A DNA stretch of 57,071 nucleotides. Source: a virus. Lineage: Duplodnaviria; Caudoviricetes. Under the pieces are notes generated by a model. That model ran no database searches. It worked only from the letters and a program-made list of their open reading frames with translations, and had not been told where the DNA came from. The stretch is from positions 1 to 57,071 of the IMG/VR virus record IMGVR_UViG_3300021959_007110, one strand, 5' to 3'. A program made the position numbers and the translations under genes. Of the stretch, positions 3,405 to 21,563 are shown one piece after another. Every line of letters starts with the position of its first letter. The first letter of the stretch is position 1.

Positions 3405-5297
3405 CTATTTAAAGTTATATTGTAAATCTTCCATTGCTCCGAAGTTAGGGTCATTTAAAAACCATCTTGCATATGCGTGGTCTACTGTTGGTTTTGGTGG
3501 GTAAAAATTTGCTAAATCTATATTTTCTTCTTTTCCGTAGTCGTTAAAATCTGGTACAAAACTTATAAGTGCTAATAACCTACGTTGAATATCCATTTGT
3601 TGTTCTAAAGTCACAGCTGCTTCTAATTCTTTTACAGTCTCTATTGCTTTCATAGCTATTAGAAGTCTCATCTTCTCTCTTTTTGAATCCACAGGATTAA
3701 CTTTAGGCATTGCTTTACCAGGAATATTCTCCACATAGTCGGGTTTAGAATTCTCAAGTGCTGCTAGTTCTTTTTCAATATTATCTTCTTGATTGGCGCC
3801 GCCTTGCCTAGCATCAAGCGGTCCTCCTCCAGACGCTTCTTCAGATGAATTTTCTAAAGCGGCTATCTCAGAGTCAATGTCGTCTTCCATAGTAGCCTCA
3901 CCATCTAATGATTCAAGTTCTGCTATCTCAACTTCAATGCTATCATCTATGGTTTGAAATCCTGTTTTTTGTTGTACTTCTTCGGTAGGAGCTTCTACAA
4001 CATCATTAGAAAAAGTGGGGCTTGTAGCAGTGATCTCAGGCTGATAAAAATCAGGCTGACCAGTAGCTAAATCTGTATCAATAGAAAGAACATCTTCAAC
4101 TACAGGGTCTAAGACTGCAAAATTATTATCATTACCCGATAAATCGACGTAACCTGGGCACGTTTGACTGTACTGAGCATCTAAACTACATTGTTCATCA
4201 AAATATGCAATATCGTACCCAGTACATCCTCTGTCAAAAAGAGGATTCTCTTCACATTTTGCAACGTAGTAGTCGGGACAAGCAGGATCCGAAGTTGGAT
4301 TATTTGTACAAGTATTATTGAATAAAGCTAGTGAGTAACCATTACACTGAGAGTCGTAGAGAGGATTCAGACTGCATTGCTGATTTAAATATGCAGTAGC
4401 GTAACCTGGACATTGACTATCATATAGAGGATTTAGCTTACATTGCTGGTTATAGTAAGCAGCTGAATAACCTGGGCATGTTGGGTCAATTAAAGGGTTA
4501 GCCGCACACTGCATAGATAACCATGCCGCCTGATATCCGGGACATCCTGGATCATATAATGGGCTTGCTACACATTGCTGATTGTATAGAGCTTGTGCAT
4601 AGCCAGGACAGGCGGGATCATATGTTTGATTATTATAGCAAGGATCAGCTGAATAATTTACATATAGTCCAGATTCATCAGCTCTAAACTCAGGACCCCA
4701 ATAACCAGCCTGGTTTGCAATGTCTTGTGCAGTTACTTCTACAACAACATTACCAAAGTAAGTAGGGTCTAATCCTATAGCGCCAAAAAGCTCTGTACCT
4801 GTTTTGGTTGTCCAGTTATAAAACTGATTGCCATAATCATATTTGTAACTTTTATATAGGTTACTGTTAGAGTCATAGACATTAACAACAATCTCAAAAG
4901 GATCTACTGCGCCACCACCTGTCTGACCAGAAAAAGTATTCGCATTACCGTTTTTAAACACCCACTCATAGTCGAATCCATCAATTTGAATACCTACTGC
5001 TTGTAAAGCTGTATTTAGTGCAATAGTGTTAGTGAGAGTTTGTTGTGTGCCACTCCAATAATATGTAGTACCGTTGCCCGTATTCTGTGCTTCGTGAATA
5101 TCACCAGTATCAGTACTTCCAGCCCAACAGTCTACATAGTGTGTACATGGACTTATAGTGCCTGTCCATCCATTTCCTAATACAATGATATCACCGGTTT
5201 GACCCCTAGTTGTTGCTTGTTGTGCGTTAGAGTAAGAGGAGCAACAGACCAAGACTAATGCCGCCAGCAGCGATTGCACCATTCCTTTTTTGAACAT
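3405..5297 (-). CDS. secreted protein with Cys-rich tandem repeats and an acidic linker
   Basis: Signal peptide-like N-terminus, beta-rich domain, 8 CxxNPLYDxxCPGY repeats and an E/D-rich region. Confidence 0.85.
   Translation of the reverse strand: MFKKGMVQSLLAALVLVCCSSYSNAQQATTRGQTGDIIVLGNGWTGTISPCTHYVDCWAGSTDTGDIHEAQNTGNGTTYYWSGTQQTLTNTIALNTALQAVGIQIDGFDYEWVFKNGNANTFSGQTGGGAVDPFEIVVNVYDSNSNLYKSYKYDYGNQFYNWTTKTGTELFGAIGLDPTYFGNVVVEVTAQDIANQAGYWGPEFRADESGLYVNYSADPCYNNQTYDPACPGYAQALYNQQCVASPLYDPGCPGYQAAWLSMQCAANPLIDPTCPGYSAAYYNQQCKLNPLYDSQCPGYATAYLNQQCSLNPLYDSQCNGYSLALFNNTCTNNPTSDPACPDYYVAKCEENPLFDRGCTGYDIAYFDEQCSLDAQYSQTCPGYVDLSGNDNNFAVLDPVVEDVLSIDTDLATGQPDFYQPEITATSPTFSNDVVEAPTEEVQQKTGFQTIDDSIEVEIAELESLDGEATMEDDIDSEIAALENSSEEASGGGPLDARQGGANQEDNIEKELAALENSKPDYVENIPGKAMPKVNPVDSKREKMRLLIAMKAIETVKELEAAVTLEQQMDIQRRLLALISFVPDFNDYGKEENIDLANFYPPKPTVDHAYARWFLNDPNFGAMEDLQYNFK
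4149..4640 (-). repeat. intragenic 22-aa (66-nt) tandem repeat, 8 units
   Basis: Units such as CVASPLYDPGCPGYQAAWLSMQ, CKLNPLYDSQCPGYATAYLNQQ and CSLNPLYDSQCNGYSLALFNNT. One unit is 18 aa and the last is partial. Confidence 0.9.
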
Positions 5298-5996: not shown

Positions 5997-6137
5997 CTAT
6001 TTTTTGCTCTTATTTTTATTTCTTTTAGGCAAAGGAGATGCTAAAACTTTACGTAGCATCTTTGACTGTTTTGCGTGAGCTTTTGAAGCTCCAGCTAACA
6101 AGTCAGCAACTTTTTTAATAGTTTTATCGTTATGCAC
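5997..6137 (-). CDS. small basic protein
   Basis: GTG start at 6137 with AGGAG RBS. Sequence includes LAGASKAHAKQS and a K-rich tail. Confidence 0.6.
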   Translation of the reverse strand: MHNDKTIKKVADLLAGASKAHAKQSKMLRKVLASPLPKRNKNKSKK

Positions 6138-6432
6138 TTTTTCTCCTTTTTGCAGTAATCTTTTTCTGAGCGTTAATAAATTTTCTATAAACACCCGCTG
6201 CCGAGACCTTTCCCATCTCTCTTGCTCGTTGTTCCATAGCAATAGCTGCTTGTGTCTTATGAGCGTGAGATTTTCCTGATCTTTTAATTTTATTTACAGA
6301 GGTTTGTGCAGATTTAACTGTGGCGAAACCTAGCCCTTTTATAGTACCTTTTGGATTCTCATCAGTGTACAAATCACTATGTTTAGTAGAGTTAGCACGT
6401 TGACCTTTTTTCCTAGGGATACGTGGTGCCAT
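6130..6432 (-). CDS. small basic phage protein
   Basis: K/R-rich, contains HSDLYTDENPKGTIKGLGF. Stop/start coupled with neighbours. Confidence 0.8.
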   Translation of the reverse strand: MAPRIPRKKGQRANSTKHSDLYTDENPKGTIKGLGFATVKSAQTSVNKIKRSGKSHAHKTQAAIAMEQRAREMGKVSAAGVYRKFINAQKKITAKRRKSA

Positions 6433-6710
6433 TACTTTTTATTTCTTTTCTTCATGGTGCTTACCATAGTAGGTTTACCACCTGGATTACCTGCTGCACG
6501 TTTGCGTTGTACTGCGCTGCGAATCTGTGCAGCAGTCATGCTATTAGCTTTTGAGCGAGGTACGCACTTCGGATATTTGCCACCATCACCAGCAGACTTT
6601 CTACCACAAGGTTGCCATTTACCATTCTTTTTAGGTGCACCAATGTTTACCCAATCACCTTTTTTACCTTTGCCAAACCATGCGGTAAGGCCGCCTCTAG
6701 GTTTAGCCAT
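6432..6710 (-). CDS. small basic phage protein
   Basis: GGLTAWF...WVNI...CGRK...YPKCVP. TAATG coupling on both sides. Confidence 0.8.
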   Translation of the reverse strand: MAKPRGGLTAWFGKGKKGDWVNIGAPKKNGKWQPCGRKSAGDGGKYPKCVPRSKANSMTAAQIRSAVQRKRAAGNPGGKPTMVSTMKKRNKK

Positions 6711-6865
6711 TATCTGTACCCGCCGCCACGTTGTTTATAGGTTCTAACTAACCAACCATTAGCATAAGCTGATGGATAAACGTTAAATTTTCTTTTAGCC
6801 TCGGCCTTAACTCGTGCATATAGTTTTGGATTTGTGGGTTTTGCGCCCTTTTTCTTAACTGCCAT
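6710..6865 (-). CDS. small basic phage protein (51 aa)
   Basis: Hand-translated MAVKKKGAKPTNPKLYARVKAEAKRKFNVYPSAYANGWLVRTYKQRGGGYR. TAATG coupling on both sides. Confidence 0.8.
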   Translation of the reverse strand: MAVKKKGAKPTNPKLYARVKAEAKRKFNVYPSAYANGWLVRTYKQRGGGYR

Positions 6866-7296
6866 TATATAATCCTTTCACTAATATTATATTTACCTGT
6901 ATATATTCGTTTCACTAATGTTATAGTTACCTTTTGGCTAACATCATCTACGTAGTATCTTTTAAAAAAATTTTTAAACTCAATTGGACGATCTTTGGAA
7001 TTATCAAAAAGAGGTATGTATTCAATTTTAGAATATTTCTTAGATGGGTATTTGTAGTCTCTTAAAACAAACCCTAAAACAAAATCCCAAGTATCTTTTC
7101 CGTCATATAAAACTGAATGCGCATTACTATTGATAACGTAAACCTTACTTCTGCTATACAAAAACATCTGTGCTGCTACTGCTGATACGATCTGACAATG
7201 AGAAAATAAATTATATTCTTGTTTCAGCTCTTTGTGGAGTAACTCACTAAGTTTAGTAACAATATGACTATCTACAGAGATAGATTTTAATCTCAC
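6865..7296 (-). CDS. putative transglutaminase/papain-like protein (paralog of 8062..8472)
   Basis: HCQIVS...SNAHSVLYDGKDTWD, a Cys-His-Asp pattern shared with the paralog. Confidence 0.5.
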   Translation of the reverse strand: MRLKSISVDSHIVTKLSELLHKELKQEYNLFSHCQIVSAVAAQMFLYSRSKVYVINSNAHSVLYDGKDTWDFVLGFVLRDYKYPSKKYSKIEYIPLFDNSKDRPIEFKNFFKRYYVDDVSQKVTITLVKRIYTGKYNISERII

Positions 7297-7315
7297 ATAT
7301 CTTTCCTTTAAGTTT

Positions 7316-8053
7316 TTAAACTTCTTTAACGTATTTAATCATAATTGATTGTTTTTTGATTGTAGGAAATTTTTTAAGCCAATTTTGCTCTTTTGCAATA
7401 GAAGTATCTTTTAGAGGATGCATTCTACGATTAATAGTATCATTTTTAAACCCAACTCCCATTAAAAGAATTGGATGTTTATTTGTACCTAAAATTTCTT
7501 TTAATTTATCATAATTCATTACACAAGAACAACAACCTGTTTCATAGCCTAAGAGAGTAGCAGTCATATTTACATATCCTGCAGCTACCCCCACTGCAAC
7601 ATGTCTATCAAGATTTATAATACGACTTGTTTCTTCTATATTGATTCCAGCATTTGATTCATTAGCCTCTTTGTGAGATCCATCCGCTACATCTTTCTCA
7701 ACAAATACTAAAAGTAGATTGCCTAAAACTTGCGGATTAGAAAGAGTTTCATATCCCGTATTATCTTTGTCATTTAGCATTAAATTAGTTGTAGTTTCAT
7801 AAATACTATCTATTACTTTCTTATTTTCAATCACGTAAAGATCATAAAAAGCTACATTTTGTTTACTAGGACACTGTGTAGCAGCAGTTATAATTGTTTT
7901 TAAATCATCCATAGGAATCTTTTTTGTTCTATCGAAGTTTCTTTGTGCATGCTGACTTCTATGAATAGCTTTAATTATATCAGTATTTTCCCATTTCGTT
8001 CTTGCCTCTTTGGGAAAAGGGGCAGAAGTCATAAAATTTTCTACGTGTATCAT
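7316..8053 (-). CDS. nitroreductase family protein
   Basis: SQHAQRNFD...IITAATQCPSKQN, GYVNMTATLLGYETGCC and LLMGVGF. Confidence 0.8.
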   Translation of the reverse strand: MIHVENFMTSAPFPKEARTKWENTDIIKAIHRSQHAQRNFDRTKKIPMDDLKTIITAATQCPSKQNVAFYDLYVIENKKVIDSIYETTTNLMLNDKDNTGYETLSNPQVLGNLLLVFVEKDVADGSHKEANESNAGINIEETSRIINLDRHVAVGVAAGYVNMTATLLGYETGCCSCVMNYDKLKEILGTNKHPILLMGVGFKNDTINRRMHPLKDTSIAKEQNWLKKFPTIKKQSIMIKYVKEV

Positions 8054-8061
8054 TTGATCTC

Positions 8062-8472
8062 CTATTTATAATATTTTAACCTTGATATATTAACATGATT
8101 AGAACGAGCCACTTCTAACACTTCTTTAGAATAAAACTCTTCAATAAATTTCTTAGGTCTTATAGCATCATGTAAATATTCAACTTTGTCTAAACTGAAG
8201 TCATCTCTTGGATAACGAAAGTTTCTTACAACAAACCCAGACTTCAAGTCCCAGGTATCAATACCGTCATAAGCTACTGCGTGACTATTGCTCTCTATTA
8301 GATAACAAAAGTTTTTAATTTTAGCAATCTCATAAGCAGTATATGAAGCCATCGCATAACATGGATATATATAAAACCATAACTTCTCATTTGTATCAGT
8401 GTTAGTAAAAAATCCTTTTTTAAAAGGAACGAGAGATGGATGATCAATAGGAATATGACCATCAAATTTCAT
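8062..8472 (-). CDS. putative transglutaminase/papain-like protein (paralog of 6865..7296)
   Basis: PCYAMA...SNSHAVAYDGIDTWD. Confidence 0.5.
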   Translation of the reverse strand: MKFDGHIPIDHPSLVPFKKGFFTNTDTNEKLWFYIYPCYAMASYTAYEIAKIKNFCYLIESNSHAVAYDGIDTWDLKSGFVVRNFRYPRDDFSLDKVEYLHDAIRPKKFIEEFYSKEVLEVARSNHVNISRLKYYK

Positions 8473-8693
8473 TAATAACTCCTAATAACTCTACCTTTAA
8501 ATGCCGTTTTATCAGCGCACCAATCTTCTGGATGCATGTGCCTAGGTCGTTTTCCTGCAGGTTTACTTACCATACGTCCCATAGGAGTATAAAAAGCACA
8601 CCATTCTTGTTGTGGTCGACGTTTAACAGAGGAACTCATTGATTCCCAAGCTTTTGTACCATTAGATGATTTAGTTAATTTACGAACTGCCAT
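8472..8693 (-). CDS. small basic protein
   Basis: GGAG RBS, K/R-rich, lies downstream of a promoter. Confidence 0.7.
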   Translation of the reverse strand: MAVRKLTKSSNGTKAWESMSSSVKRRPQQEWCAFYTPMGRMVSKPAGKRPRHMHPEDWCADKTAFKGRVIRSY

Positions 8694-8705
8694 GATTACT
8701 CCAAT

Positions 8706-8760
8706 AAAAAAGGGTATATTTCTATACCCTCATTGTTACACTTTGAGATTTGTATGTCAA
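8706..8760 (-). promoter_or_regulatory. sigma70-like promoter overlapping an intrinsic terminator hairpin
   Basis: Minus strand: TTGACA-N17-AACAAT, then AGGGTAT-AGAAAT-ATACCCT-TTTTT. Confidence 0.6.
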
Positions 8761-8767
8761 AAAGAAA

Positions 8768-9841
8768 TTATAATCTTTTAGTGATTACACTCTCTCCACT
8801 GAAATCTTCCTCTGATTTGATGAATTCGTAGAATCCTTGAACTGCAACTTCTTTATGCTTCGCTTCAATATCAAAATCTGCATATTCAAGCATTGGTACA
8901 TGATTTGCCATTAGATGCTCATCCCAGTAAGTTTCTGAATGAGCATTAGGTTTCATCCAGTAATCTCGATTATCGGGGTGGAAGGATTGTGATTTGTGGA
9001 ACAACGGGCGTACGCCTCTCCATGACTTGACAGCTTCCACGAAGTAGTCACTTGTGTGGGTGATGTGATCCACGTCTCTAATTTTCCGATTGACCGTTTT
9101 CTCTCCAATTTTAACTCTCTCAGCCTCAACCATTCGATGGCAGGCATAGTGGTGTGTGTCGAGGGTGCAGCGGATAGGGATCCGTTGGGCAAGTTCAAGT
9201 GTGTGGTGGATGTCATATCCATTGGGTTTATCTTCATTTTCGACGGATAAGCAGCCTTGGGCATAGTCTGAAAGGTAGGGGAAGTGTGCGGCAAAGCGTT
9301 TAATACCATCTTCGTGTTTTCCTCCATATAGTCCTTGTAAGTGAATGTTCATTGAAAAATCTTCGGCAGGTAATCCCATCAATGAACCGTATAGGGCATG
9401 ATACTCTAAATCTTCAATAGATTTAGTTACTACATCTGGTTTATTAGAAGCGAGAACTGTATACTGACCAGGATGCACAGAAAGACGAACAGAGTGTCGT
9501 TTTGCAGCCTCACCAGCTTGAGCCAGTATAGTTTCAATCTCCTCCCAAATTTCTTTATACCAGTCTTGAGTAAATTCAAGAGTGTAGCAAGGAAACATCT
9601 CAGAAGAGATCCGAAAGCTTCTAAGATTAAAAGGTTGAGTTGGGAAATAAGTAGTAAGAGCGTCGAGAAGTTTTTTACAGTTCCCAATAGCCTTTGTTTG
9701 AACTTTCTCTTTTCCGCCCTCTTTAAGAGCATAGGTCTTGGTAGTGGTTCCAAAGTTATACCTTTTAGCAAGCGTTTTATCATGCCATTGGCAGCATTGC
9801 GAAATGCGCCAATCAGTTTGTTTTTGATTGAAATATTCCAT
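8768..9841 (-). CDS. uvsE: UV damage endonuclease
   Basis: FRISSEMFP, RLSVHPGQYTVLAS, SVENEDK, LDTHHY and DIEAKHKE motifs. Confidence 0.92.
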   Translation of the reverse strand: MEYFNQKQTDWRISQCCQWHDKTLAKRYNFGTTTKTYALKEGGKEKVQTKAIGNCKKLLDALTTYFPTQPFNLRSFRISSEMFPCYTLEFTQDWYKEIWEEIETILAQAGEAAKRHSVRLSVHPGQYTVLASNKPDVVTKSIEDLEYHALYGSLMGLPAEDFSMNIHLQGLYGGKHEDGIKRFAAHFPYLSDYAQGCLSVENEDKPNGYDIHHTLELAQRIPIRCTLDTHHYACHRMVEAERVKIGEKTVNRKIRDVDHITHTSDYFVEAVKSWRGVRPLFHKSQSFHPDNRDYWMKPNAHSETYWDEHLMANHVPMLEYADFDIEAKHKEVAVQGFYEFIKSEEDFSGESVITKRL

Positions 9842-9945
9842 AGAATCTCCGTTGATTTTCTATAGTATATATAAAGTTGTAAGGACTCTGCAAAGATTTA
9901 TTAGAGTCTTAATCTACCACAAGGTTTAATCACGCCATTAAAAAA

Positions 9946-10272
9946 TTACTTACTTTTACCAAGGTTTTGAGTACCAAAAAAAGCAGCAACAATAGCTGCA
10001 ACTGAAACAAAATACACAGAGGCCATGTCTCCAAGAATTTTACTTGCTTGATCTAACCCAATAAGAACTGCTAGTACAACAGCAAAAGGATATAATAACA
10101 TACCAAATAAGGCAAACCATGCCATTTTACGTTGTGCATCTCGCATCGCGTCTGCATCCTCTAGAGCTTTACGTTTAAATTCTAAATCCATCTCTAACTC
10201 TTCTTTAGATAAATGCCCATCACCGTTAATATCTTTAGCGGCTACTTCTGGATCAACCGTTTTCGTTTCCAT
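9946..10272 (-). CDS. EF-hand-like two-TM membrane protein (holin candidate)
   Basis: DINGDGHLSKEE EF-hand loop followed by two hydrophobic segments. Confidence 0.7.
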   Translation of the reverse strand: METKTVDPEVAAKDINGDGHLSKEELEMDLEFKRKALEDADAMRDAQRKMAWFALFGMLLYPFAVVLAVLIGLDQASKILGDMASVYFVSVAAIVAAFFGTQNLGKSK

Positions 10273-10594
10273 TAATCATCTCCCAAGGAATATAATTCAT
10301 AATATCCTCTTGATAAAAATATGCACCTAATACAGCAGCTACAAGCACTAGTATCCAAAGTGGTTTTTTAGAGGTTTGCGTTGAAATAGACTGAGCTACT
10401 TCATCTGCAAATTGAGAAGCTTCACGCTCTGTATGCATACGCTCCCAAAGAGCTTTTTGACCTTCTATTCTACGTAAAGAAGCACCTTTTACTTTAAGTA
10501 AAGTTTCAGCTTCTTCCCAAGTAAGAAGTGTTTTAATATCATCATCCATTTTATCGTCCTTTAAAAGTCGATTTCTCGACCATCTTTTTCCCAA
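10253..10594 (-). CDS. hypothetical protein with a C-terminal TM segment
   Basis: ORF track; hydrophobic segment LWILVLVAAVLGAYFY. Confidence 0.6.
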   Translation of the reverse strand: MGKRWSRNRLLKDDKMDDDIKTLLTWEEAETLLKVKGASLRRIEGQKALWERMHTEREASQFADEVAQSISTQTSKKPLWILVLVAAVLGAYFYQEDIMNYIPWEMINGNENG

Positions 10595-10603
10595 GTGTTA
10601 AAT

Positions 10604-10885
10604 CTAGTCCTGATAGTTGCCACTTGAGTTTCTGTTAGTTGTTGTTTGTTCGAGTATTCGGATACGAGCTTCGATACTGTCGAGTCGTTTGGCGAGTTCG
10701 GGGAATTTAGCCATTCGCTTTCGTTCATCTGTGAGCATTTTAATTCCGTACCTTTTTGAAGCCCAAGTGTAGAGCGAATCCAATTTAGCATATGTCCATA
10801 CTCCTAATTTTGTATCTCTAAACCACGATTCTGTAGCGGAACCTACAATAGAACCTGCTATAGATTTTAATAAGAAAAACCACAC
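10604..10885 (-). CDS. hypothetical protein
   Basis: ORF track; GTG start coupled to the upstream stop. Confidence 0.6.
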   Translation of the reverse strand: MWFFLLKSIAGSIVGSATESWFRDTKLGVWTYAKLDSLYTWASKRYGIKMLTDERKRMAKFPELAKRLDSIEARIRILEQTTTNRNSSGNYQD

Positions 10886-11643
10886 TATGAAACTCCTGTT
10901 CCTGGAACAATAGTATCTGCTCCATCAATAAGTACCATGTCAAAGATTGCACCTGCTTCAGTAGTAGCACCTGCTTTTACTTGTACTTGTATGTCAGTAT
11001 TAGCGCTAAATTTTAATGGATAATCGTAAGTATAATCTACAGGTACGCCAAAAGAACCAAAACGTCCTTTTTCGTTAAAAGCGGTTCCCGCATCATTATC
11101 TCTTGCTAATATTCTAAATATTACCTCTTTTTGTTTATCAATTGAACCTTGAAAATAATGTAGATAACCTGTTTTTCCTGCAGGAACTGTGTAGACTGCC
11201 ATCAGTGTTTGACCTGCCCCAGCTGTAATTAAAGCAGCTATCTCCCCACCCTGTCTGATTTCAATTGAATTTGAATTAGTAGTACTTGTGTTTGCTGAAA
11301 CAACAATAGCACGATTTATACGAGAGTATGAATTGGCTGATGCAGATCCGTCAACTGTAATTAAATCTGTAGCAGGAAGAAAATTTGCATCAAGTCCTGA
11401 TATTCTAACAGTTGATGCAGAGTCATCAGCATCTGTTGTAGAAACAGCGGTTGCTGTACCAGAACTTTGATAAGTGTACACATTTGAACCGTCCCACACT
11501 GTTTCAAAACTGCCTCCTACAGAAGAATTCCAACCAAATTTATTGATAGCAGAATGGTTAGAAACGTGTCCACGAGCTACTTGAAGATTAAATGATTCAG
11601 TTTTACGAGTAGCGGTAGCAGATGGATTTTGAAAATTACTCAT
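10885..11643 (-). CDS. beta-rich phage protein, probably virion-associated
   Basis: INKFGWN...ETVWDG, ISGLDANF and GQTLMAVYTVPAGKTGY. T/S/A/G-rich. Confidence 0.65.
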   Translation of the reverse strand: MSNFQNPSATATRKTESFNLQVARGHVSNHSAINKFGWNSSVGGSFETVWDGSNVYTYQSSGTATAVSTTDADDSASTVRISGLDANFLPATDLITVDGSASANSYSRINRAIVVSANTSTTNSNSIEIRQGGEIAALITAGAGQTLMAVYTVPAGKTGYLHYFQGSIDKQKEVIFRILARDNDAGTAFNEKGRFGSFGVPVDYTYDYPLKFSANTDIQVQVKAGATTEAGAIFDMVLIDGADTIVPGTGVS

Positions 11644-11845
11644 TACACATTTCCATATAGCAATTATGAGTAGGTTTTGCTAACATCTGTCTAGTCCAAT
11701 CTAATTCTTGAATCAATCGGTTATACCACGCCTGATCCATTGGATCATGTGCTTTTGCCATATCTTCTTTTAATTGCCCAATTCTTACGTTAATATATTT
11801 TTCTGCCTTACTCATCGCACCATCCTTTTTTAGCTCCGCCATCAT
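11636..11845 (-). CDS. hypothetical protein
   Basis: ORF track; contains WYNRLIQELDW. True start may be MSKAEKY. Confidence 0.6.
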   Translation of the reverse strand: MMAELKKDGAMSKAEKYINVRIGQLKEDMAKAHDPMDQAWYNRLIQELDWTRQMLAKPTHNCYMEMCNE

Positions 11846-12269
11846 AAGAACGAGCTAAACCTTTATCAATTAAAATGTCAGAATAAAGAAGACCGTCTAG
11901 ATACACATTTGAAAGTATACGTCCTCCATATTTATCCCATTTGAGATCTTTAAACTCAATAGTTTTCGCAGCGCGAAATAACTTGTTAGCAGTTTGTCTA
12001 CCAATGAGAGCTAGTTCTTTTTCTTTTTCACACTTGCCTTTTATCTCAGGAGTATCAATACCAAGTACTCTAACACTCATTCTACTTAGTTTGCCAGGAA
12101 GTACGGGTGCAGAAACATAACAAGTGTCTCCATCATAACAAACATTGCCACGATACTCACGCATCTGTAAAAAATCAGAAGCAAACGCTAAGTTTGCAAA
12201 TAAAATTACAGCTATACCAAAAGAAAATCCAGCTAATAATTCCAATCCGAATTTATCAATTTTTTTCAT
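11808..12269 (-). CDS. thermonuclease (SNase-like) with signal peptide
   Basis: YDGDT, VRVLGIDTPE, DKYGGRIL and GLARSY motifs; signal peptide ends AFA. Confidence 0.9.
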   Translation of the reverse strand: MKKIDKFGLELLAGFSFGIAVILFANLAFASDFLQMREYRGNVCYDGDTCYVSAPVLPGKLSRMSVRVLGIDTPEIKGKCEKEKELALIGRQTANKLFRAAKTIEFKDLKWDKYGGRILSNVYLDGLLYSDILIDKGLARSYDGGAKKGWCDE

Positions 12270-13159: not shown

Positions 13160-14119
13160 CTAAAGACCGTTTGGTACAATCACGTAATGGATAGCCAATA
13201 CTACCCCAACAGAAGCAGCAAGTCCGACCATCATTTTTAAAAAGTCTTTTCCTATTAGGGGGAATACAACTTTAAACTTTTCCTTGCCTGTCATAGTTGC
13301 CATAGCAAGTTCACGTCCACATAGTAATCCAACGAACACCCAAGTTGTTGACATAGGTATATCGTTAAGCTCTTTAAAGAAGAATAAGATAACCCAATAT
13401 ACGGCATCAATAATTGTAGCAGAACGAACATAACGAGTATTATGCTTCTCTAAAACAATATTTTGAATCTTACCTCCACCTTCTCTGAACATAAACCAAA
13501 GCCCGCCTACAAAGATAGCAGAAATTGCAAACATCATGTCAGCAGGAATTTGTCTTGGTAAAAACACCGCAATATTTGCGATATCATGAGATAACCAAGT
13601 CCACCATAAAAAGCCAGTAGTAACCCATTGTCCAATTCTCCACCAGCGTTTATGTTCTTCTTTAACTGGTCTAGATTCGTCTAAAATTTTAGTTACACAA
13701 ATCCAAATAACATAAGCAGCTACAGCAGCAACAGCATATCCCATCATAGATTTCATCAACATTTTTTCTAAAATAAAAGTAGAAGCAAAAGCTGAAAGTA
13801 CTAAAAATGATGTGCTTACAGGCACACCGATCCGCGTTAGTAAAAGTAGAAGTCCAGGGGCTAACGCGTGATACCACTGAATTTCTTGAAAGGGTATTTT
13901 ATTCAGTCTTCCATAGGAGATGTCTCCCCCATAAGTAAACCATCCGTACCATAATGCCCATAACAAAACAGACGAAGCAGCAAGCCACATCGTCCTCCAA
14001 TGAAATCGTTCGTTGTTAGAAGCAATCCAAGTACCGAGAGTTTGTACTGAATCATTTGCTATAACTGAATACGCAGCAAATAAAAAACCAACACCCATCC
14101 AAAGAGTTAAAAGTTCCAT
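13160..14119 (-). CDS. PiT-related inorganic phosphate (anion) transporter
   Basis: Multi-TM protein with ANDSVQTLG, GVPVSTS, HDIANIA and IPMSTTW, matching the duplicated PiT signature pattern. A Pho box lies upstream. Confidence 0.75.
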   Translation of the reverse strand: MELLTLWMGVGFLFAAYSVIANDSVQTLGTWIASNNERFHWRTMWLAASSVLLWALWYGWFTYGGDISYGRLNKIPFQEIQWYHALAPGLLLLLTRIGVPVSTSFLVLSAFASTFILEKMLMKSMMGYAVAAVAAYVIWICVTKILDESRPVKEEHKRWWRIGQWVTTGFLWWTWLSHDIANIAVFLPRQIPADMMFAISAIFVGGLWFMFREGGGKIQNIVLEKHNTRYVRSATIIDAVYWVILFFFKELNDIPMSTTWVFVGLLCGRELAMATMTGKEKFKVVFPLIGKDFLKMMVGLAASVGVVLAIHYVIVPNGL

Positions 14120-14141
14120 TTTAATTTCTCCTTAGAAAAGT

Positions 14142-14167
14142 AATAAGAGGCCACTAGACCTCTTATT
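14142..14167 (-). terminator. hairpin between the tRNA and the transporter gene
   Basis: Minus strand AATAAGAGGTC-TAGT-GGCCTCTTATT followed by ACTTTT. Confidence 0.55.
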
Positions 14168-14170
14168 TTC

Positions 14171-14204
14171 ATTATATTACAAAATTGTTACAGTTTTGTG
14201 AAAT
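14171..14204 (-). promoter_or_regulatory. Pho box (PhoB-binding site) plus -10 element
   Basis: Minus strand ATTTCAC-AAAA-CTGTAAC-AATTTTGTAA-TATAAT. Direct repeats with 11-bp period lie exactly 10 bp upstream of TATAAT. Confidence 0.7.
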
Positions 14205-14219
14205 TTGAAAAATTAAAAT

Positions 14220-14304
14220 TGGCTGTGGAGGATGGAGTCGAACCATCACGCCTTTCGGCACACGAGAAACAGTCGTGCGTGTCTACCAGTTTCACCACCC
14301 CACA
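14220..14304 (-). tRNA. tRNA-Asn(GUU), 85 nt, long variable arm, encoded CCA
   Basis: TGTGGGG-TG-GTGAAACTGGTAGACAC-G-CACGA-CTGTTTC-TCGTG-TGCCGAAAGGCGT-GATGG-TTCGACT-CCATC-CTCCACA-G-CCA folds into a cloverleaf with U1-A72 and G73. Confidence 0.9.
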
Positions 14305-14309
14305 ATAAA

Positions 14310-15140
14310 TTATGCTGCGAGTTGAAGCTGGGTATCTAGCGCCGCTATCATACGGGTCATACCGATACCCCCACCTACGCGAGGGAAAAAGTCAAACTTT
14401 AAAAATTCCTCAAGTTCAGCCTCTACACGTTCTTTGCCAAACAGTTCAAAGAGTAGATTTGCGTAGGCTCCCTCAGTGATAGTATGAAAAGTGTCACGCA
14501 TCATCTCAACGTCACAAGAACGTTCAGCTGAACCAATAGTTTCCATGCCGCCAAGAATTACATCAATTTTTTTAGAGTGAATTCCATCTTCATAACGGCT
14601 CATGTTCCAGAACGGAGAAGTAAACTCAGGGAAGTCAGTAATCATAGCAGTACTAAAATCATTAAACATTGCGGTTTCATGCACTGCTTCAAGTTCTCCA
14701 TCAACCTTATAGTGCTTTTGCCATGCCTCATAGGTCTTCTCAATCGGTCGATCAAAGCCAAGATAATCTACAAGTTCATATTCCATCTTTTTAAGGTCTA
14801 CAATGTCACCGGGCATTTCAAATTCAAACATTGGGAAGATAATATCATGCCTACCAGGAATAGCGTTAGGTTCTTGTCTGTATGAAGTTGAGACACAAAA
14901 AAAGCCCTTTTCATTGGGCTGAGAGAGTAATTCATGTTCTAACCACATCTGACCAGTTTGTGGAAGAGGCCAAACTTGACCAGCATAGTTATAAGTAGCA
15001 ACGTTAAACGGATCTTCGCAAGCTGCAAGGATAGAAAGACGATTCTGTGTGTGAACTTCTTTAAAACCTTTATCTAAAAAAAATGACCTTAAAAGGCCAA
15101 CAGTGTGAGTAAATTTTGTAGGAGAGATTAGTTGAGTCAT
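14310..15140 (-). CDS. class IIb aaRS catalytic-domain protein (AsnRS/asparagine synthetase-like) lacking the anticodon-binding domain
   Basis: Start moved to MTQLISP (GAAAGG RBS). Motif 1 LRSFFLDKGFKEV, LPQTGQMWLE, motif 2 SYRQE...RH...FPMFEFE, ETIGSAER, motif 3 GGGIGMTRM. No N-terminal OB fold. Confidence 0.85.
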   Translation of the reverse strand: MTQLISPTKFTHTVGLLRSFFLDKGFKEVHTQNRLSILAACEDPFNVATYNYAGQVWPLPQTGQMWLEHELLSQPNEKGFFCVSTSYRQEPNAIPGRHDIIFPMFEFEMPGDIVDLKKMEYELVDYLGFDRPIEKTYEAWQKHYKVDGELEAVHETAMFNDFSTAMITDFPEFTSPFWNMSRYEDGIHSKKIDVILGGMETIGSAERSCDVEMMRDTFHTITEGAYANLLFELFGKERVEAELEEFLKFDFFPRVGGGIGMTRMIAALDTQLQLAA

Positions 15141-15161
15141 TATTATACCTTTCTTGTATAT

Positions 15162-15231
15162 AAAAAGACGCGCAGATTTAAAACCTGCGCTCAAATTAAC
15201 CAATTATATAAGAAGTATAACCAGTGAGCAA
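15162..15231 (-). promoter_or_regulatory. sigma70-like promoter followed by a terminator-like leader hairpin
   Basis: TTGCTC-N17-TATAAT, then GCGCAGG-TTTTAAA-TCTGCGC-GTC-TTTTT ahead of the aaRS-like gene. Confidence 0.6.
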
Positions 15232-15249
15232 TATCAAATTATATTTTTA

Positions 15250-15693
15250 TTAAGATATTGCTCTCATTCTTGTTACGAGTCGATCAGCACGCTTAGTAAC
15301 TTGTCGGTACCAACGGGAATCTACCATTTCAGTAGCTGCAGCCATCCAGTCACGCGCATCTACCCCACGCTTCATTCCCTTAAATTTCGATAAGCGAGGG
15401 CGACCCATATTGAACATCATGTTAGCGATTATTCTTTTAGCTTCTTCTGGCAAATCGTCAAAGTCTGGGTATAGTTCGTAGCAGTCAGACACGACTGTTT
15501 TGATATCTTCGTTGAAGGCTTCAACACACCTATCATTACTGACGGCTGTGCCGACTTCCCATCCATGTTCTGGATCGGATTCTCTAACGAGATGACCAAT
15601 ACCAAAAGTAGGCAGACCGAGATGATCCAAATAGATTTCTTCCACATTTCCTTCATCATACTCAATCTCTTCTCTTAATTTTTCAATATTCAT
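15250..15693 (-). CDS. endolysin, GH24/T4-type lysozyme
   Basis: DEG...YLDHLGLPTFGIGH (E-x8-D-x5-T triad), NMMFNMG and DSRWYRQV..RA.RL. Confidence 0.92.
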   Translation of the reverse strand: MNIEKLREEIEYDEGNVEEIYLDHLGLPTFGIGHLVRESDPEHGWEVGTAVSNDRCVEAFNEDIKTVVSDCYELYPDFDDLPEEAKRIIANMMFNMGRPRLSKFKGMKRGVDARDWMAAATEMVDSRWYRQVTKRADRLVTRMRAIS

Positions 15694-15816
15694 AAAATTT
15701 TCCTTTTTAAATAAATTTCTGTACAAACCTAATTGATTATAGTATTTAAATTTGTACGTTTTTTAAAAATAAACAAGATTAATATAGAACTCTACATCTT
15801 ACTTTTTTATTTTATG

Positions 15817-16527
15817 TTAATCATAACTCTTTTTTACATGAGCATGATTTTTATACCAATCTTCTCTATCTTTTTGCATTTCTTCGCGCTTCTTTTTTGT
15901 TTTACGAAGTTCTTGTTTATCTAACCATGTAACTTTTGAATCCCACGTATCACGTCGGACAGGGATAATTTGACATATAGGAGTTCCTGCAGGTATCATA
16001 ATTTCTGAACCCCCTGGCTCAAGCATTGAGTGAATAAAAGGTATATTTACTATATTATCAAAAGTATCAGTATCTACAAGTCCTGTAAGAGGGATAATAG
16101 GACTATCAAGTCTGTTTAAAGGCGGTAAAAATAACAATGAATAGTCTTTTGGTGTTTCTATACGCCAAGGATTCATCCATTTAAGAACTGTAAAAGATTC
16201 CATAGGAGAACCTGGCATCTGTCGCATAGGATGAGTCTGGATTGGGGGCCATTTAGAGATGAGCGCTTTGTGTTTTTCATCAATGAAGTCTAGTTTTAAG
16301 GACATATCAGAAAGTTGTCTAATGACAATATCAACATGGTTGAGAAGCATATAGCCAGCTGTTATAGCATCTAAAAACGGAACACATTTTTTAACTGTCT
16401 GATCACCTTCGTTCCACGCCGGAGTCTTCTTAAACCAGTCAGGGACTGTACGCTTGGAGGGAATTGGAGGAAGTACGATTTGATCAGGAAAATCCTGCAT
16501 TAGATGAAATTTAATTTGTTTTTTCAT
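15817..16527 (-). CDS. conserved phage protein (dUTPase-like beta-clip fold suspected)
   Basis: TVKKCVPFLDAITAGY, NPWRIETPKDYS, GLVDTD and IPAGTPICQIIP. Confidence 0.7.
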   Translation of the reverse strand: MKKQIKFHLMQDFPDQIVLPPIPSKRTVPDWFKKTPAWNEGDQTVKKCVPFLDAITAGYMLLNHVDIVIRQLSDMSLKLDFIDEKHKALISKWPPIQTHPMRQMPGSPMESFTVLKWMNPWRIETPKDYSLLFLPPLNRLDSPIIPLTGLVDTDTFDNIVNIPFIHSMLEPGGSEIMIPAGTPICQIIPVRRDTWDSKVTWLDKQELRKTKKKREEMQKDREDWYKNHAHVKKSYD

Positions 16528-16685
16528 GCAGAGGCAACATTAGTTGGAGTAAAAAAAGTAGAAGGAACTTCTTCAGATATAGTACCACAATCGCAAATAT
16601 CACAACCACAAGCACCATTCTCGCAAGAATCCCACTTACAATGACAGCTGCATCCACATTTATTGCAATTCTTAGTTTCGGTCAT
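16524..16685 (-). CDS. metallothionein-like Cys-rich protein (53 aa)
   Basis: Hand-translated MTETKNCNKCGCSCHCKWDSCENGACGCDICDCGTISEEVPSTFFTPTNVASA. 10 Cys in 27 residues; ATGA overlaps at both ends. Confidence 0.8.
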   Translation of the reverse strand: MTETKNCNKCGCSCHCKWDSCENGACGCDICDCGTISEEVPSTFFTPTNVASA

Positions 16686-17770
16686 GCAGCTAAACTTTCG
16701 GGTAAATGGGCTAGTGGATTAGAAGGGTTGACACCTAAAAACTTACCCCACTCTGCATAGTAGTGGCGCATTCCAACTTCATCATGAATTGTAGAATTTT
16801 CATGGCGTCCGTGTAGGATGTTTCTCGATTCGGTACCTTCTCTCATGGTAGTACCTTGACCAGCAACACCAATTAAGTCTTCATGTAAATTGCGACCGAA
16901 TGGTCCCCAGATAGAATTGTGGTGTTTGATTCTTGTTTGTCTTTCTTCTGGAGTATCGCACCTAAGCCCATAACCACGAAACTCTATAAGAACTTTGTTG
17001 GGTCCGAGAGGTGTTACTGAGTCTGAACGATAGGCGGAACCCCGTAGGTTGAAATTAAACCCTGGGAAGAGGTCGACCATGTACCACTGGTTGGGCGGCA
17101 GATTGGGAAAAGATAACTCCCCTCTATCCTCAAAGCCGTCATACTCAGTATAGTTAACAGTAAAGCTAGACACGTTAACATGACCATTATCAAAAGGAAT
17201 ATTTTTTCTAGCAAAGTATTCATCGTTAAATCCTGACACACGATTAAAGTAGTGCATAAAGTCATGATAAAATTCTGAATTAGTATCATGCCATAGCTTG
17301 TAGTTTGTATCAATTACTGCCTTGTGGTAATGAAACACTTCCATTTCTTCAGTATCAATTGCATCAGCAATACAATCAAATGCTCCAGCAGTCCATTCAT
17401 CCACACTCTGTGTAGGGTTAGGATCAAGTGTGACCCAGACCATTCCACCATGTTTTACTTCGCAGTGTAGTTGTGGTTCAACGGTTACAATCGGTGCAGC
17501 TACTGTACCAGAAGGGTAATTGAACCCATGATTACGGTACGCCTTAATACCATCTTTAGTATTTACTGCAATTACGTTCTGCCCAGCAATTTGTGTTGTT
17601 CTATAGTTACCTTCATTATACATTTCTGAGATATGGCACATAGGAATCCAAACCTTTGAAAAGATTTGTTCTTGTTCTGCTTTATATACTTCATAACTAT
17701 TATAACAATCACTGTTAATATATTCGACTTTTGGTGAACTAATCCAGTTTTTATGGTTTCTTGGTGCCAT
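16682..17770 (-). CDS. ring-hydroxylating oxygenase alpha subunit, MsmA (methanesulfonate monooxygenase)-like, lacking the Rieske ligands
   Basis: EQEQIFSKVW..MCH.SE, NYKLWHDTNSEFYHDFMH (mononuclear Fe His pair), LFPGF and HEDL. No CxH...CxxH motif. Confidence 0.8.
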   Translation of the reverse strand: MAPRNHKNWISSPKVEYINSDCYNSYEVYKAEQEQIFSKVWIPMCHISEMYNEGNYRTTQIAGQNVIAVNTKDGIKAYRNHGFNYPSGTVAAPIVTVEPQLHCEVKHGGMVWVTLDPNPTQSVDEWTAGAFDCIADAIDTEEMEVFHYHKAVIDTNYKLWHDTNSEFYHDFMHYFNRVSGFNDEYFARKNIPFDNGHVNVSSFTVNYTEYDGFEDRGELSFPNLPPNQWYMVDLFPGFNFNLRGSAYRSDSVTPLGPNKVLIEFRGYGLRCDTPEERQTRIKHHNSIWGPFGRNLHEDLIGVAGQGTTMREGTESRNILHGRHENSTIHDEVGMRHYYAEWGKFLGVNPSNPLAHLPESLAA

Positions 17771-19581: not shown

Positions 19582-20224
19582 ACTCTGCTCTCCTATTCTT
19601 TAACAAGGGTAAAAAAGGTATAGCACTTTTTTCAAAAACAATCGGATCATCTCCATCAATAGTCATGATAATAGCCACATCTTGAATTCCAGTACCGTAC
19701 ATCTCATTATGTGCGACAGCGTACGCACAGCCTTGAATATAATAGTCAGTGATTTGTTTCTGGTTCTTTTTCTTTTTTGATGTTTTAAAATCAATAATTG
19801 TAGGTTTACCTTTCCAAATACCGACCATATCAGTTCTACCTGCGTACCTATATTTATTAGACCAAAGAACTTGTTCTTGTCCCCAAATCTCTTCAACTCC
19901 ACGCTCTGTGGCTCTAATTAAATCACGACTCATTTGTCTTACGTCTAGCCTCTGATGTGTTAATTCGTCCCATACGTCTTCCCCGTTGAAATGACGTTCT
20001 GCAAATTCGTGAACTAAAGTGCCTCGATCTGTCGCTTCTTTGGAAACCCGTGCGGCTTCTTCTTCTCCTACTCGTTCTTTCCATTTCTGTAACCAAGTTT
20101 GATCTGAGGTTTTACCTAGAATAGTAGTAATAGATGGATAAGATCCATCAGGTGTATGATAAGTTCTTCCACTAGGTAGAGTATCAGTATCTACCTCAGT
20201 TATGTATTTGAACTTCTCTTTCAT
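19550..20224 (-). CDS. PD-(D/E)XK exonuclease
   Basis: YPSITTIL, RGTLVH, YAGRTD, IIDFKTS and QGCAYA. Confidence 0.9.
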   Translation of the reverse strand: MKEKFKYITEVDTDTLPSGRTYHTPDGSYPSITTILGKTSDQTWLQKWKERVGEEEAARVSKEATDRGTLVHEFAERHFNGEDVWDELTHQRLDVRQMSRDLIRATERGVEEIWGQEQVLWSNKYRYAGRTDMVGIWKGKPTIIDFKTSKKKKNQKQITDYYIQGCAYAVAHNEMYGTGIQDVAIIMTIDGDDPIVFEKSAIPFLPLLKNRRAEFDKLQRAQDS

Positions 20225-21563
20225 AATCTTCAACGGTATTGACAATCGGTTTTCCTTTCGCATTTAAGCTTGTATTAATTAGTATAGGATAACCATGTTG
20301 TCTTGTTATCTCTAATATTCTCCAAATATATGCATTCTTATTACGACTTATTATTTGAAGACGAGCTGATTTATCGTGAGTATTAAAGTTACCTCCAATA
20401 ATATCAGCAACAAACAACATATCATAACTAGGCTGATAAATTTTAAACCACGTATCAGCTTCTTCTTCTTGGCATATAGGCGCATAAGGTCTCCACGAAT
20501 CTGTATCACGCTTTTTAATTTGATTTAGCTTTTCTATGTTATCATCTGTGGGGATACATAGCAAGCTTCGATTTCCAAGCGCGCGAGGACCAAACTCTGC
20601 TCTGCCTTGAATAACTGGGACAATTTCCCCCTTAAGTAACCTAGCCGCTACTTCGTCAGTAGTAATTCCGTTATTAGCGCTTACCCCTAGATAAGCATTT
20701 TCCCAATTAGGTCTACAAATCAAAGCAGCAGCACCTAGAGCGCATCCAGCATCTCCTGCAGCAGGTTGTATCGCAATAGATTCAAATCCTGAATGTTTTT
20801 TAATATTAGTATTAGCTACACAATTGAGGGCGACACCTCCTGCATAAGCTAAATTTTTCATCCCAGTTTCTTCTTGTAGCCAAGTAGCTAAAGACAAAAG
20901 TACGTTTTCAGTTACACGTTGAACTGACGCTGCTACGTCCCAATCCAAAACGCCATAACCAACGCCGCGTTCAAAATTATGCAAGACAGTATAATCTCCA
21001 TCTGCGTTCCAGTCTATAATTTTTTGATTTATCCAAGGCAGCCACTTAGGTTCTCCATAAGCAGCTGCTGCCATCACTTGAGACTCGTCAGAAAGAGGTT
21101 TAAGTCCCAAGAAACGAGTAGCACTAGAGTAAAATAAACCAATAGAGTTTGGATAAAGAAATCTTTTAATCCATTCAATTTTGCCTCCACGATAAACTCC
21201 TAAAGATGTTGAATATTTATTTCCGACAGTATCTACTACCATTACCGCGCACTCATACCAATCAGTCATAAGAATAGAACTCATAGCGTGGGCTTCATGA
21301 TGATCTACTAGAATAGGTTGTGCTTTCGTTATTTTTTTAATCTCTGATTTAAAATCAGAATATGTAGATTCTTCATAAAAAGCAGCAAATTCAAAATCTT
21401 CCCACGCATTCTGTAACCACGATATAGTATTGATTGGAAATGAATTATCATATTTTTTACGAGTAAAGCGTTCTTCGTGAGAAGCTCCTAAAATATGAGT
21501 ATCTTTTAATGCTGCTGCGGCACTATCGTGGTGATAGCAGCTGACTCCTAGTATGTTCATCAA
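20196..21563 (-). CDS. carbamoyltransferase (NodU/CmcH family)
   Basis: HDSAAA, EERFTRKK, HHEAHA, AGGVALNCVAN, QPAAGDAG, EFGPRALGNRS and NTSLN. Confidence 0.93.
   Translation of the reverse strand: MMNILGVSCYHHDSAAAALKDTHILGASHEERFTRKKYDNSFPINTISWLQNAWEDFEFAAFYEESTYSDFKSEIKKITKAQPILVDHHEAHAMSSILMTDWYECAVMVVDTVGNKYSTSLGVYRGGKIEWIKRFLYPNSIGLFYSSATRFLGLKPLSDESQVMAAAAYGEPKWLPWINQKIIDWNADGDYTVLHNFERGVGYGVLDWDVAASVQRVTENVLLSLATWLQEETGMKNLAYAGGVALNCVANTNIKKHSGFESIAIQPAAGDAGCALGAAALICRPNWENAYLGVSANNGITTDEVAARLLKGEIVPVIQGRAEFGPRALGNRSLLCIPTDDNIEKLNQIKKRDTDSWRPYAPICQEEEADTWFKIYQPSYDMLFVADIIGGNFNTHDKSARLQIISRNKNAYIWRILEITRQHGYPILINTSLNAKGKPIVNTVEDYEREVQIHN

Follow-up and report, generated by a model that had tools for sequence, protein, structure and literature searches.

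The 57,071-nucleotide stretch of the IMG/VR virus record IMGVR_UViG_3300021959_007110 (Duplodnaviria; Caudoviricetes), hereafter the window, encodes a 276-amino-acid protein, here denoted X, that resembles the catalytic core of asparaginyl-tRNA synthetase (AsnRS), followed on the same strand, after a gap of 5 nt (14305–14309), by a tRNA with the anticodon GUU. The gene and the tRNA, which we call captive, form a dedicated, co-inherited unit. The explanation that we favour, and to which we give about an even chance, is that X is a new, AsnRS-derived entry enzyme into late pyrimidine synthesis that would be served in phages by a non-decoding, substrate-carrying tRNA. The X/tRNA system is far from anything described: no account of the enzyme, the captive tRNA or the route was found in the full-text literature (supplements were outside the scope of the search). 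The system is very common in ocean viromes, with at least 595 confirmed loci and at least 8000 protein clusters.

The linkage between the X gene and the tRNA is reciprocal and nearly absolute. Among the best 80 of the at least 595 confirmed IMG/VR loci, collected starting from the enzyme, the tRNA lies about 5–190 nt downstream in 78; one of the two exceptions is a contig that ends inside the tRNA (L008), and the other is the only locus without it (L075). When the search starts from the tRNA pattern, X is found directly upstream and on the same strand in 79 of 80 loci, and the 80th (L264) has 9 bases of upstream sequence, so that the assessable loci carry X in 79/79 cases; the two sets overlap in part, with several contigs present in both. 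An earlier note on this DNA had proposed a dedicated phage asparagine module and pointed to the linkage across phage genomes as the way to examine it. The adjacency is kept in both search directions, and the dedicated enzyme/tRNA unit stands, whereas the purposes offered for it leave the pyrimidine-synthesis (pyr) context of X, described below, unexplained. The pair is also present in the phages P-SSM7, P-SSM2 and P-SSM5 (65–66% identity of X) and spans unrelated backbones, T4-like in P-SSM2/5/7 and that of a PolA-encoding phage in the window. In a more distant viral set, the tRNA is found on 20 of the 45 contigs without the GVMAG label and on none of the 35 contigs with this label, which marks giant-virus genomes in IMG/VR. 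The captive tRNA is also absent throughout the records of the megaphage copies of X (LR756501/03/08).

Within the window, the open reading frame (ORF) and the ARAGORN coordinates agree with the short, co-directional spacing that had been noticed earlier. Terminator-like hairpins flank the X and tRNA pair, and none lies between its two members. The junction between the coding sequence of X and the tRNA is spanned by contigs from RNA libraries (three runs of two studies), namely X15 record 6 (14273–14355) and X16 record 9 and X17 record 17 (both 14100–14609). Given that such contigs can stem from DNA in the library, and that the parts they leave uncovered are uninformative, this bridging is a mere hint of co-transcription of X and the tRNA in the window phage. 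The previous claim that the two genes are under one promoter is not demonstrated, the sole promoter-like site with 10/12 matches (15267–15238) being located upstream of the hairpin that precedes X (15170–15190).

To judge from its sequence, the captive tRNA has the body of a tRNA-Leu, combined with the acceptor end and the anticodon of a bacterial tRNA-Asn. The window tRNA scores 43.8 bits with the Rfam tRNA model (gathering score 29), and about 10 nt are inserted in its variable region; its 10-nt variable arm, 3-bp D stem and anticodon loop CUGUUUC, with U at position 37, justify its earlier description as an atypical tRNA-Asn. For the family, 82 copies were collected, 58 of them distinct. 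Among the distinct sequences, the cloverleaf shows standard pairs in 99.7% of the cells, with compensatory changes at 18 of the 23 pairs; none of 500 shuffles attains the observed score, and all three pairs of the variable-arm stem (helix 4) are preserved via such changes. The pair U1-A72 and the discriminator G73 are each found in 58/58 distinct tRNAs, whereas the pairs 2-71, 3-70 and 4-69 vary; the anticodon GUU is invariant (82/82 copies), U33 is present in 81 of the 82 copies, and CCA is encoded in 56 of the 58 distinct tRNAs, the exceptions being cyanophage copies. In bacteria, U1-A72, G73 and GUU are the identity elements of tRNA-Asn that are read by the host AsnRS, or by the non-discriminating aspartyl-tRNA synthetase (ND-AspRS) and the amidotransferase GatCAB. 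The captive tRNA carries all three of these marks but departs from bacterial tRNA-Asn in its shape, which is not that of class I with a short variable loop, and at position 37, where a purine is expected and the window tRNA has U. Position 37 is U in 43, A in 11, C in 4 and G in 0 of the distinct tRNAs (U 62, A 15, C 5 and G 0 among the 82 copies), and a position that is never G and mostly U is odd for a tRNA retained for decoding.

The relationship of the body to tRNA-Leu is apparent from the family covariance model (R1), which scores the window tRNA at 93.5 bits and the best matches of which outside the family are tRNA-Leu in all eight loci fetched (two megaphages and three bacterial genomes; 55–74 bits). 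The captive tRNA shares with bacterial tRNA-Leu the class II body with a long variable arm, the 3-bp D stem and a similar D loop but differs from it in the anticodon GUU and in G73, where tRNA-Leu has A73. The variable arm comes in two forms, a short one in tRNAs of 83–89 nt, including that of the window (10 nt), and a long one of about 25 nt in tRNAs of 99–109 nt, with a 7-bp stem and a conserved loop. ARAGORN labels the long-arm forms (about 100 nt) as tRNA-Glu(ctc), Asp(atc), Ile(aat) or ‘???’, or else misses them (L011, L021, L024–L027, L033, L035, L036, L038, L040, L044, L049, L060, L081 and others), so that automatic annotation will hide this tRNA family. The tRNA counts given here were made with a script and the covariance model, since ARAGORN alone under-counts.

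X itself consists of a single domain. The only Pfam match is PF00152, the class II core of the Asp, Lys and Asn enzymes (E 5.8e-15), and because it spans residues 14–268 of the 276, no residues remain for an OB-fold anticodon-binding domain; the 120 listed homologues (250–318 amino acids) likewise match PF00152 only. The AlphaFold2 model, built on 51 relatives, is one compact domain (predicted local distance difference test 96.4; predicted template modelling score 0.92), in accord with the class IIb core lacking an OB-fold that the earlier note had described. The top Foldseek matches of this model are the AsnRS structures 1x54, 2xti, 9sh8, 8tc8 and 8h53 and the yeast AspRS 1eov, with E of about 1e-17 to 1e-16; overall, the structural matches comprise AsnRS cores and AspRS of the eukaryote/archaeal type, at 14–19% identity, with template modelling scores of 0.72–0.77 on the query for AsnRS. 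The family profile ranks the solved structures as follows: AsnRS (2xti, 3.5e-15), archaeal AspRS (3nel, 3.8e-14), the archaeal asparagine synthetase AS-AR (3p8t, 1.6e-7, with just part of the profile covered) and EpmA (2e-5), whereas AsnA is not matched at E ≤ 0.01. X falls far short of every curated NCBIfam model. It scores 18.3 bits against the curated AsnRS model TIGR00457 (asnS; cut-off 342.6) and 21.4 bits against the NCBIfam model of archaeal-type asparagine synthetase A (NF005055; cut-off 389), does not belong with EpmA/PoxA, a LysRS paralogue (3a5z is matched at just E 2e-5), and, PF00152 being the sole Pfam match, has no homology to CarAB, PyrB or PyrC. PHROGs includes the family as phrog_29758 (E 2.8e-128), the function of which is annotated as unknown.

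The active site of X is of the AsnRS type. The pocket segment PLPQTGQMWLE aligns with LTQSSQLYLE of AsnRS, unlike LAQSPQLYKQ of AspRS, in which the lysine of the KQ segment binds the side-chain carboxylate of aspartate. The arginines of motifs 2 and 3 (R88, R97-H98 and R263) are kept throughout the family, as expected of a class II core, and the Glu aligned with VEGG of AsnRS is conserved. Motif 1 is degenerate (..vyvqsrl.. where the Brugia AsnRS has ..VAPPTL..), with loss of the class II proline in this alignment, so that, among the motifs 1–3 reported previously, motifs 2 and 3 are intact and motif 1 is not. The AsnRS-type pocket, the conserved Glu and the motif 2 and 3 arginines suggest that X can bind ATP together with an uncharged substrate that resembles asparagine. 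The family also has invariant residues of its own, including C41 in AACEDP, W57, W66 and PFWNM. C41 (window about 15018–15020) is located beside the amino-group-binding Glu, is at least 90% conserved in both tRNA-linked and tRNA-less members and is without an equivalent in the AsnRS sequence aligned with it (QVEGG), which makes it a candidate catalytic addition.

Taken together, X resembles the AsnRS class IIb core (1x54, 2xti/2xgt, 9sh8 and 8h53/8tc8) in the fold, the motif 2/3 arginines, the Q..Q..LE pocket and the VEGG Glu, and differs from it in the lack of an OB-fold, the loss of the motif 1 proline, the structural identity of just 14–19%, the invariant residues of its own and the pyr genomic context. 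As part of the joint explanation favoured here, and with the same middling confidence, we take X to be a separate family descended from the AsnRS catalytic core. The archaeal AS-AR (3p8t and 1nnh) and the bacterial AsnA, which are metabolic descendants of Asp/AsnRS, are likewise stand-alone class II cores (about 290–330 amino acids) devoid of an anticodon domain, but the matches of X to AS-AR are weaker than those to AsnRS (3p8t 1.6e-7; 1nnh 1.1e-5), and AS-AR and AsnA have neither a dedicated tRNA nor a pyr-gene context. Aminoacyl-tRNA is known as a metabolic intermediate: ND-AspRS and GatCAB form asparagine on the tRNA, and Glu-tRNA is the precursor of tetrapyrroles. These systems use the ordinary decoding tRNA of the cell, in contrast to the separate, Leu-bodied tRNA, lacking a purine at position 37, that is fixed to the enzyme gene in the phages considered here.

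X is not confined to phages that carry the tRNA. An exhaustive search yields 685 representative clusters of the family, and a search seeded with a 12-sequence alignment yields 415 confirmed X loci in species genomes. After a few phage-like contigs, the carriers are mostly members of the candidate phyla radiation (CPR)/Patescibacteria, along with Aureispira, Moheibacter, Chitinophagales, a metagenome-assembled genome (MAG) of Flavobacteriaceae, Rickettsiales and two other Alphaproteobacteria; all the bacterial carriers listed are at 56–64% identity. The special tRNA is absent from all the bacterial X loci examined. When 84 tRNA-linked sequences are compared with 131 tRNA-less ones, conservation reaches 90% or more with the same residue in both groups at about 100 positions, and only one position is group-specific besides two N-terminal residues that most of the tRNA-less sequences lack. 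With this many common positions and a single group-specific one, X very likely performs the same chemistry whether or not the tRNA is present.

The CPR genomes were also considered in another connection, namely, X as their missing AsnRS, and this possibility was rejected: 47 of the 61 genomes of one CPR class have no AsnRS-like match (E ≤ 1e-40), and just four of these carry X, so that such matches are lacking irrespective of X and the two are not complementary. Several CPR classes share the arrangement SerRS, unknown, Dus, small ORF, X, DnaX (L116, L133, L101, L119 and L139; about 6000–12000); Dus, the tRNA dihydrouridine synthase, is a flavin mononucleotide enzyme that acts on the pyrimidine ring.

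The genomic context connects X with the late steps of pyrimidine synthesis. Among the 14 longer homologues, nine are fusions of PyrD with X (584–661 amino acids); a fusion of X with orotidine monophosphate (OMP) decarboxylase was found once, and one X fusion is encoded on a GVMAG contig (L178). In Aureispira (L095), a pyrE-pyrF fusion and pyrD adjoin X, and both are canonical; this pyrD (E 2e-75) is by far the best in the genome, and pyrF has a single match there. In two alphaproteobacterial MAGs (L096 and L099), X, pyrF, a gene for a phosphoribosyltransferase (PRTase)-like protein of 134–135 amino acids and a pyrD-like gene lie on one strand. Similar pyr neighbours accompany X in Chitinophagales, in the Flavobacteriaceae MAG and on several viral contigs, and ordinary PyrD and UMP-synthase-like genes lie beside X at giant-virus loci. 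A tblastn search detects pyr genes in the flanks of X at 13 of 80 genome loci and at 6 of 80 loci retrieved with the fusion query. Phage contigs with the tRNA are part of this pattern: in L023, L030, L028, L010, L110 and L088, a PyrD-like and/or a PRTase-like gene flanks the pair, and L237 shows the row OMP decarboxylase, phosphoenolpyruvate carboxykinase (PEPCK), small ORF, PRTase-like, X, tRNA. The PyrD-like (229–274 amino acids) and PRTase-like (130–135 amino acids) proteins of the phages and Alphaproteobacteria are short and match their families weakly. An ATP-dependent PEPCK lies directly upstream of X in Moheibacter (L160, 7257–8825) as well as in the same row in L237 (3882–5099); its presence in two unrelated contexts may point to a supply of oxaloacetate/aspartate or CO2.

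In the X carriers tested, pyrB and pyrC of the early pathway are absent. In five X-carrier genomes, neither pyrB (0/5) nor pyrC (0/5, with both models) exceeds the curated cut-off, whereas carB (1/5), pyrD (4/5) and pyrF (3/5) do so to varying extents; in the controls, pyrB, carB, pyrD and pyrF were each recovered in 14/14. In the family of Aureispira (41 genomes), X is present in two genomes, both without pyrB, and pyrB is found in 36 of the 39 genomes without X (Fisher P about 0.012, with only two positives among the 41 genomes); pyrD is present in 39 of the 41, including both X carriers.

Under the explanation favoured here, X would bind an asparagine-like substrate and ATP and would stand in, as the genomic context suggests, for carbamoyl-phosphate synthetase, aspartate transcarbamoylase and dihydroorotase. 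We infer that its product would be the substrate of PyrD, which would feed PyrD and then PyrE/PyrF. The Leu-type body and the lack of a purine at position 37 make the captive tRNA more likely a carrier of the substrate of X than a decoder. Transcribed right behind X, it would be loaded by the host AsnRS or by ND-AspRS and GatCAB and would bring the Asn/Asp substrate to X; the phage would thereby push the pyrimidine supply for replication through the host PyrD/E/F. A more specific version, which we put forward tentatively and consider unlikely to hold in this exact form, is a one-step synthesis of dihydroorotate by X from asparagine, CO2/bicarbonate and ATP, in which the captive tRNA of marine phages would hand over tRNA-bound asparagine. 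The atoms fit, inasmuch as asparagine contains the carboxylate of dihydroorotate and its N1, N3, C4, C5 and C6, which leaves only C2 to be added, for instance from CO2 in an ATP-driven closure of the ureido ring. In such a reaction, the alpha-amino carbamate would be adenylated and the side-chain amide would close the ring, and X as a single enzyme would replace all three early activities; in hosts that make asparagine only on tRNA, ND-AspRS would load the captive tRNA and GatCAB would amidate the product. Dethiobiotin synthetase closes a ureido ring between two nitrogens with CO2 and ATP, and does so by phosphorylating the carbamate. It is a precedent for the chemistry only, given that its fold is unrelated to that of X and that it does not adenylate the carbamate.

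Several observations weigh against a role of X in pyrimidine synthesis. The pyrD gene is found in none of five viral records (the window record, P-SSM7, P-SSM2 and two megaphages), and tblastn detects no pyr-like gene in the window, so that the phage would need the enzymes of the host. Among the 80 closest phage loci, just five have a pyr-like gene within the 2.5-kb flanks. In CPR of the Saccharimonadia type, X is sporadic (4 of 61 genomes), none of these four carriers has pyrD, and G004, a complete 0.7-Mb chromosome with X, lacks both pyrD and pyrF, which argues against a single universal role; moreover, the genes that are conserved beside X in CPR encode SerRS, Dus and DnaX rather than Pyr enzymes. 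The complementarity of X and pyrB rests on two positive genomes, and gene absences are soft given that the X-carrier genomes are mostly MAGs. Finally, the intact active site of the aminoacyl-tRNA synthetase type, together with the invariant anticodon, fits ordinary aminoacylation equally well.

The last point leads to the two options raised in the earlier note, an orthogonal synthetase/tRNA pair and an asparagine synthetase linked to a tRNA, neither of which accounts for the fusions and clusters of X with pyr genes. As a private aminoacylation pair, X would be a minimal AsnRS that reads the acceptor end or the long variable arm and provides Asn-tRNA for AAY codons in transamidation-only hosts. 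The AsnRS-type pocket with motifs 2 and 3 intact, the invariant GUU, G73 and U1-A72, the CCA encoded in 56 of the 58 distinct tRNAs and the reciprocal linkage all agree with this possibility, and PylRS enzymes that consist of the catalytic core only are a precedent for this way of working with a tRNA. Nevertheless, we regard it as unlikely, because tRNA-less X without group-specific residues occurs in genomes that have AsnRS (Aureispira G001 and G035) or GatB (G002–G005), X and AsnRS are not complementary among the 61 CPR genomes, the PyrD/PyrF fusions and pyr operons are left unexplained, and position 37, a pyrimidine in 47 of the 58 distinct tRNAs, is free to vary. Free asparagine synthesis by an enzyme similar to AsnA or AS-AR, with an extra tRNA-Asn, such that both the asparagine supply and the decoding of AAY codons increase, has a precedent in AS-AR, an AsnRS core without an anticodon-binding domain (profile match E 1.6e-7), and is compatible with the weak NCBIfam match to archaeal-type asparagine synthetase A. 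That match, at 21.4 bits, is far under the cut-off of 389, and AS-AR ranks below AsnRS and AspRS, with AsnA unmatched (E ≤ 0.01). The pocket has LE of the AsnRS type rather than KQ of AspRS, free asparagine would be useless for translation in the carriers without AsnRS (G002–G004), and neither the 79/79 linkage nor the pyr context follows from such an activity, which we accordingly rate as improbable.

The short, weakly matching PyrD-like and PRTase-like proteins of the phages and Alphaproteobacteria would be accommodated if X and the tRNA made a non-standard pyrimidine-like nucleotide or base modification, with aminoacyl-tRNA as the donor and these divergent proteins completing the product; aminoacyl-tRNA-dependent steps are common in natural-product pathways. 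The canonical pyrD and pyrE-F that adjoin X in Aureispira and the ordinary PyrD and UMP-synthase-like genes beside the giant-virus X argue against such a product, and the probability of a modified nucleotide appears small. Still less probable, and in our estimate only barely worth retaining, is a defensive role of the tRNA, which as a decoy or a substitute would counter host anticodon nucleases that cleave tRNA-Asn, with X merely co-travelling in a mobile cassette. The unusual anticodon loop and body of the tRNA, the presence of the cassette in differing neighbourhoods and the homing-endonuclease domains at X in 2 of the 14 long homologues speak for such a role, whereas 79/79 linkage at a fixed spacing of a few bases is unlike chance hitch-hiking, and the neighbourhood contains no conserved gene for a nuclease or for repair.

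If the proposed role in late pyrimidine synthesis is correct, the textbook entry into this pathway has an unrecognised substitute derived from a tRNA synthetase and disseminated by phages, by giant viruses and by bacteria that are reduced or predatory, and phages carry a tRNA that serves metabolism and is not kept for decoding. Genome-based predictions of pyrimidine auxotrophy would then have to be revised for genomes that have X but lack pyrB and pyrC. Should the enzyme and the tRNA instead turn out to be a private aminoacylation pair, they would represent the first natural phage-borne synthetase/tRNA pair that bypasses the anticodon-binding route, which would be relevant to orthogonal translation.

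Table 1. Features of the X/tRNA locus in the window.
Feature	Position	Strand	Basis or details
Coding sequence of the AsnRS-like catalytic-core enzyme X (P0001)	14310–15140	minus	ATG start, 276 aa plus stop; ORF and translation
Captive tRNA(GUU), 85 nt, class-II-shaped (long variable arm), U1-A72, G73, encoded CCA	14220–14304	minus	ARAGORN tRNA-Asn(GTT)
Anticodon G34 U35 U36	14270–14268	minus	read from sequence and Rfam alignment
U at position 37	14267	minus	read from sequence and Rfam alignment
Variable arm, 10 nt: 3-bp stem and GAAA loop	14250–14259	minus	insert relative to Rfam tRNA consensus
Ribosome-binding-site-like AAGAAAGG, 7 nt 5' of the ATG of X	15148–15155	minus	read from sequence
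Terminator-like hairpin separating X from the upstream lysozyme gene	15170–15190	minus	9 pairs, then T-run; consensus match only
Terminator-like hairpin just 3' of the tRNA	14142–14167	minus	11 pairs; consensus match only

In P-SSM2 (L002, NC_006883.2), the deposited tRNA-Asn feature is displaced to record positions 164094–164179, inside a coding sequence; ARAGORN places the tRNA at locus 3813–3900, i.e. record 162082–162169, right after the gene annotated as ‘tRNA ligase’, which fits the order of the locus tags. The only mention found in the literature is in a table of Sullivan 2010 (PMC3037559), where T4-GC 194 appears merely as ‘tRNA ligase’ in two cyanophages; both of these columns also list carbamoyltransferase, as do three columns without ‘tRNA ligase’. 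Nothing of relevance was found in PMC7824862 and PMC3877843. Permuted tmRNA-like genes with tag peptides are predicted by ARAGORN near X in L029 (3433–3778), L073 (597–978) and L083 and L084 (about 492–875). Two of the 14 long homologues (P0287 and P0290) have GIY-YIG/NUMOD3 and LAGLIDADG homing-endonuclease domains fused to X or running into it, which suggests that the X gene is a target or a passenger of mobile elements. No fusion of X to a CarB-type MGS domain was found among the long forms scanned for it, which have either these endonuclease domains or no further domain.

The window record, 57 kb in length, stems from an uncultivated phage of marine or estuarine waters and is a fragment, with a CheckV completeness estimate of 34%. 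Besides PolA, it encodes a DnaB-like helicase and an NAD-dependent ligase, along with a large cluster for sugar modification. No close isolate was found; the best isolate matches of the DNA polymerase are to Proteus, Enterobacter and Vibrio phages, and at just about 40% identity, they do not allow a host to be named. The window (15250–17770, minus strand) and L010 (98–2377) have common neighbours upstream of X, namely, a ring-hydroxylase alpha-like protein, in which no Rieske domain was detected in either case, a DUF6065 protein and a phage lysozyme. The side 3' of the tRNA differs, with a PRTase-like gene in L010 versus a 319-amino-acid membrane protein with no Pfam match in the window (13160–14119). 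A NodU/CmcH-type carbamoyltransferase (PF02543 and PF16861) is encoded 5 kb from X (20196–21563, minus strand); a source of carbamoyl groups could be relevant to a pathway that forms a ureido ring. The window further encodes two Asp/Asn beta-hydroxylase-like proteins (PF05118; 19069–19581, minus strand, and 41420–42052, plus strand), a 2-oxoglutarate-Fe(II) oxygenase, a sulfotransferase and a large cluster of sugar-nucleotide and glycosyltransferase genes (27–41 kb).

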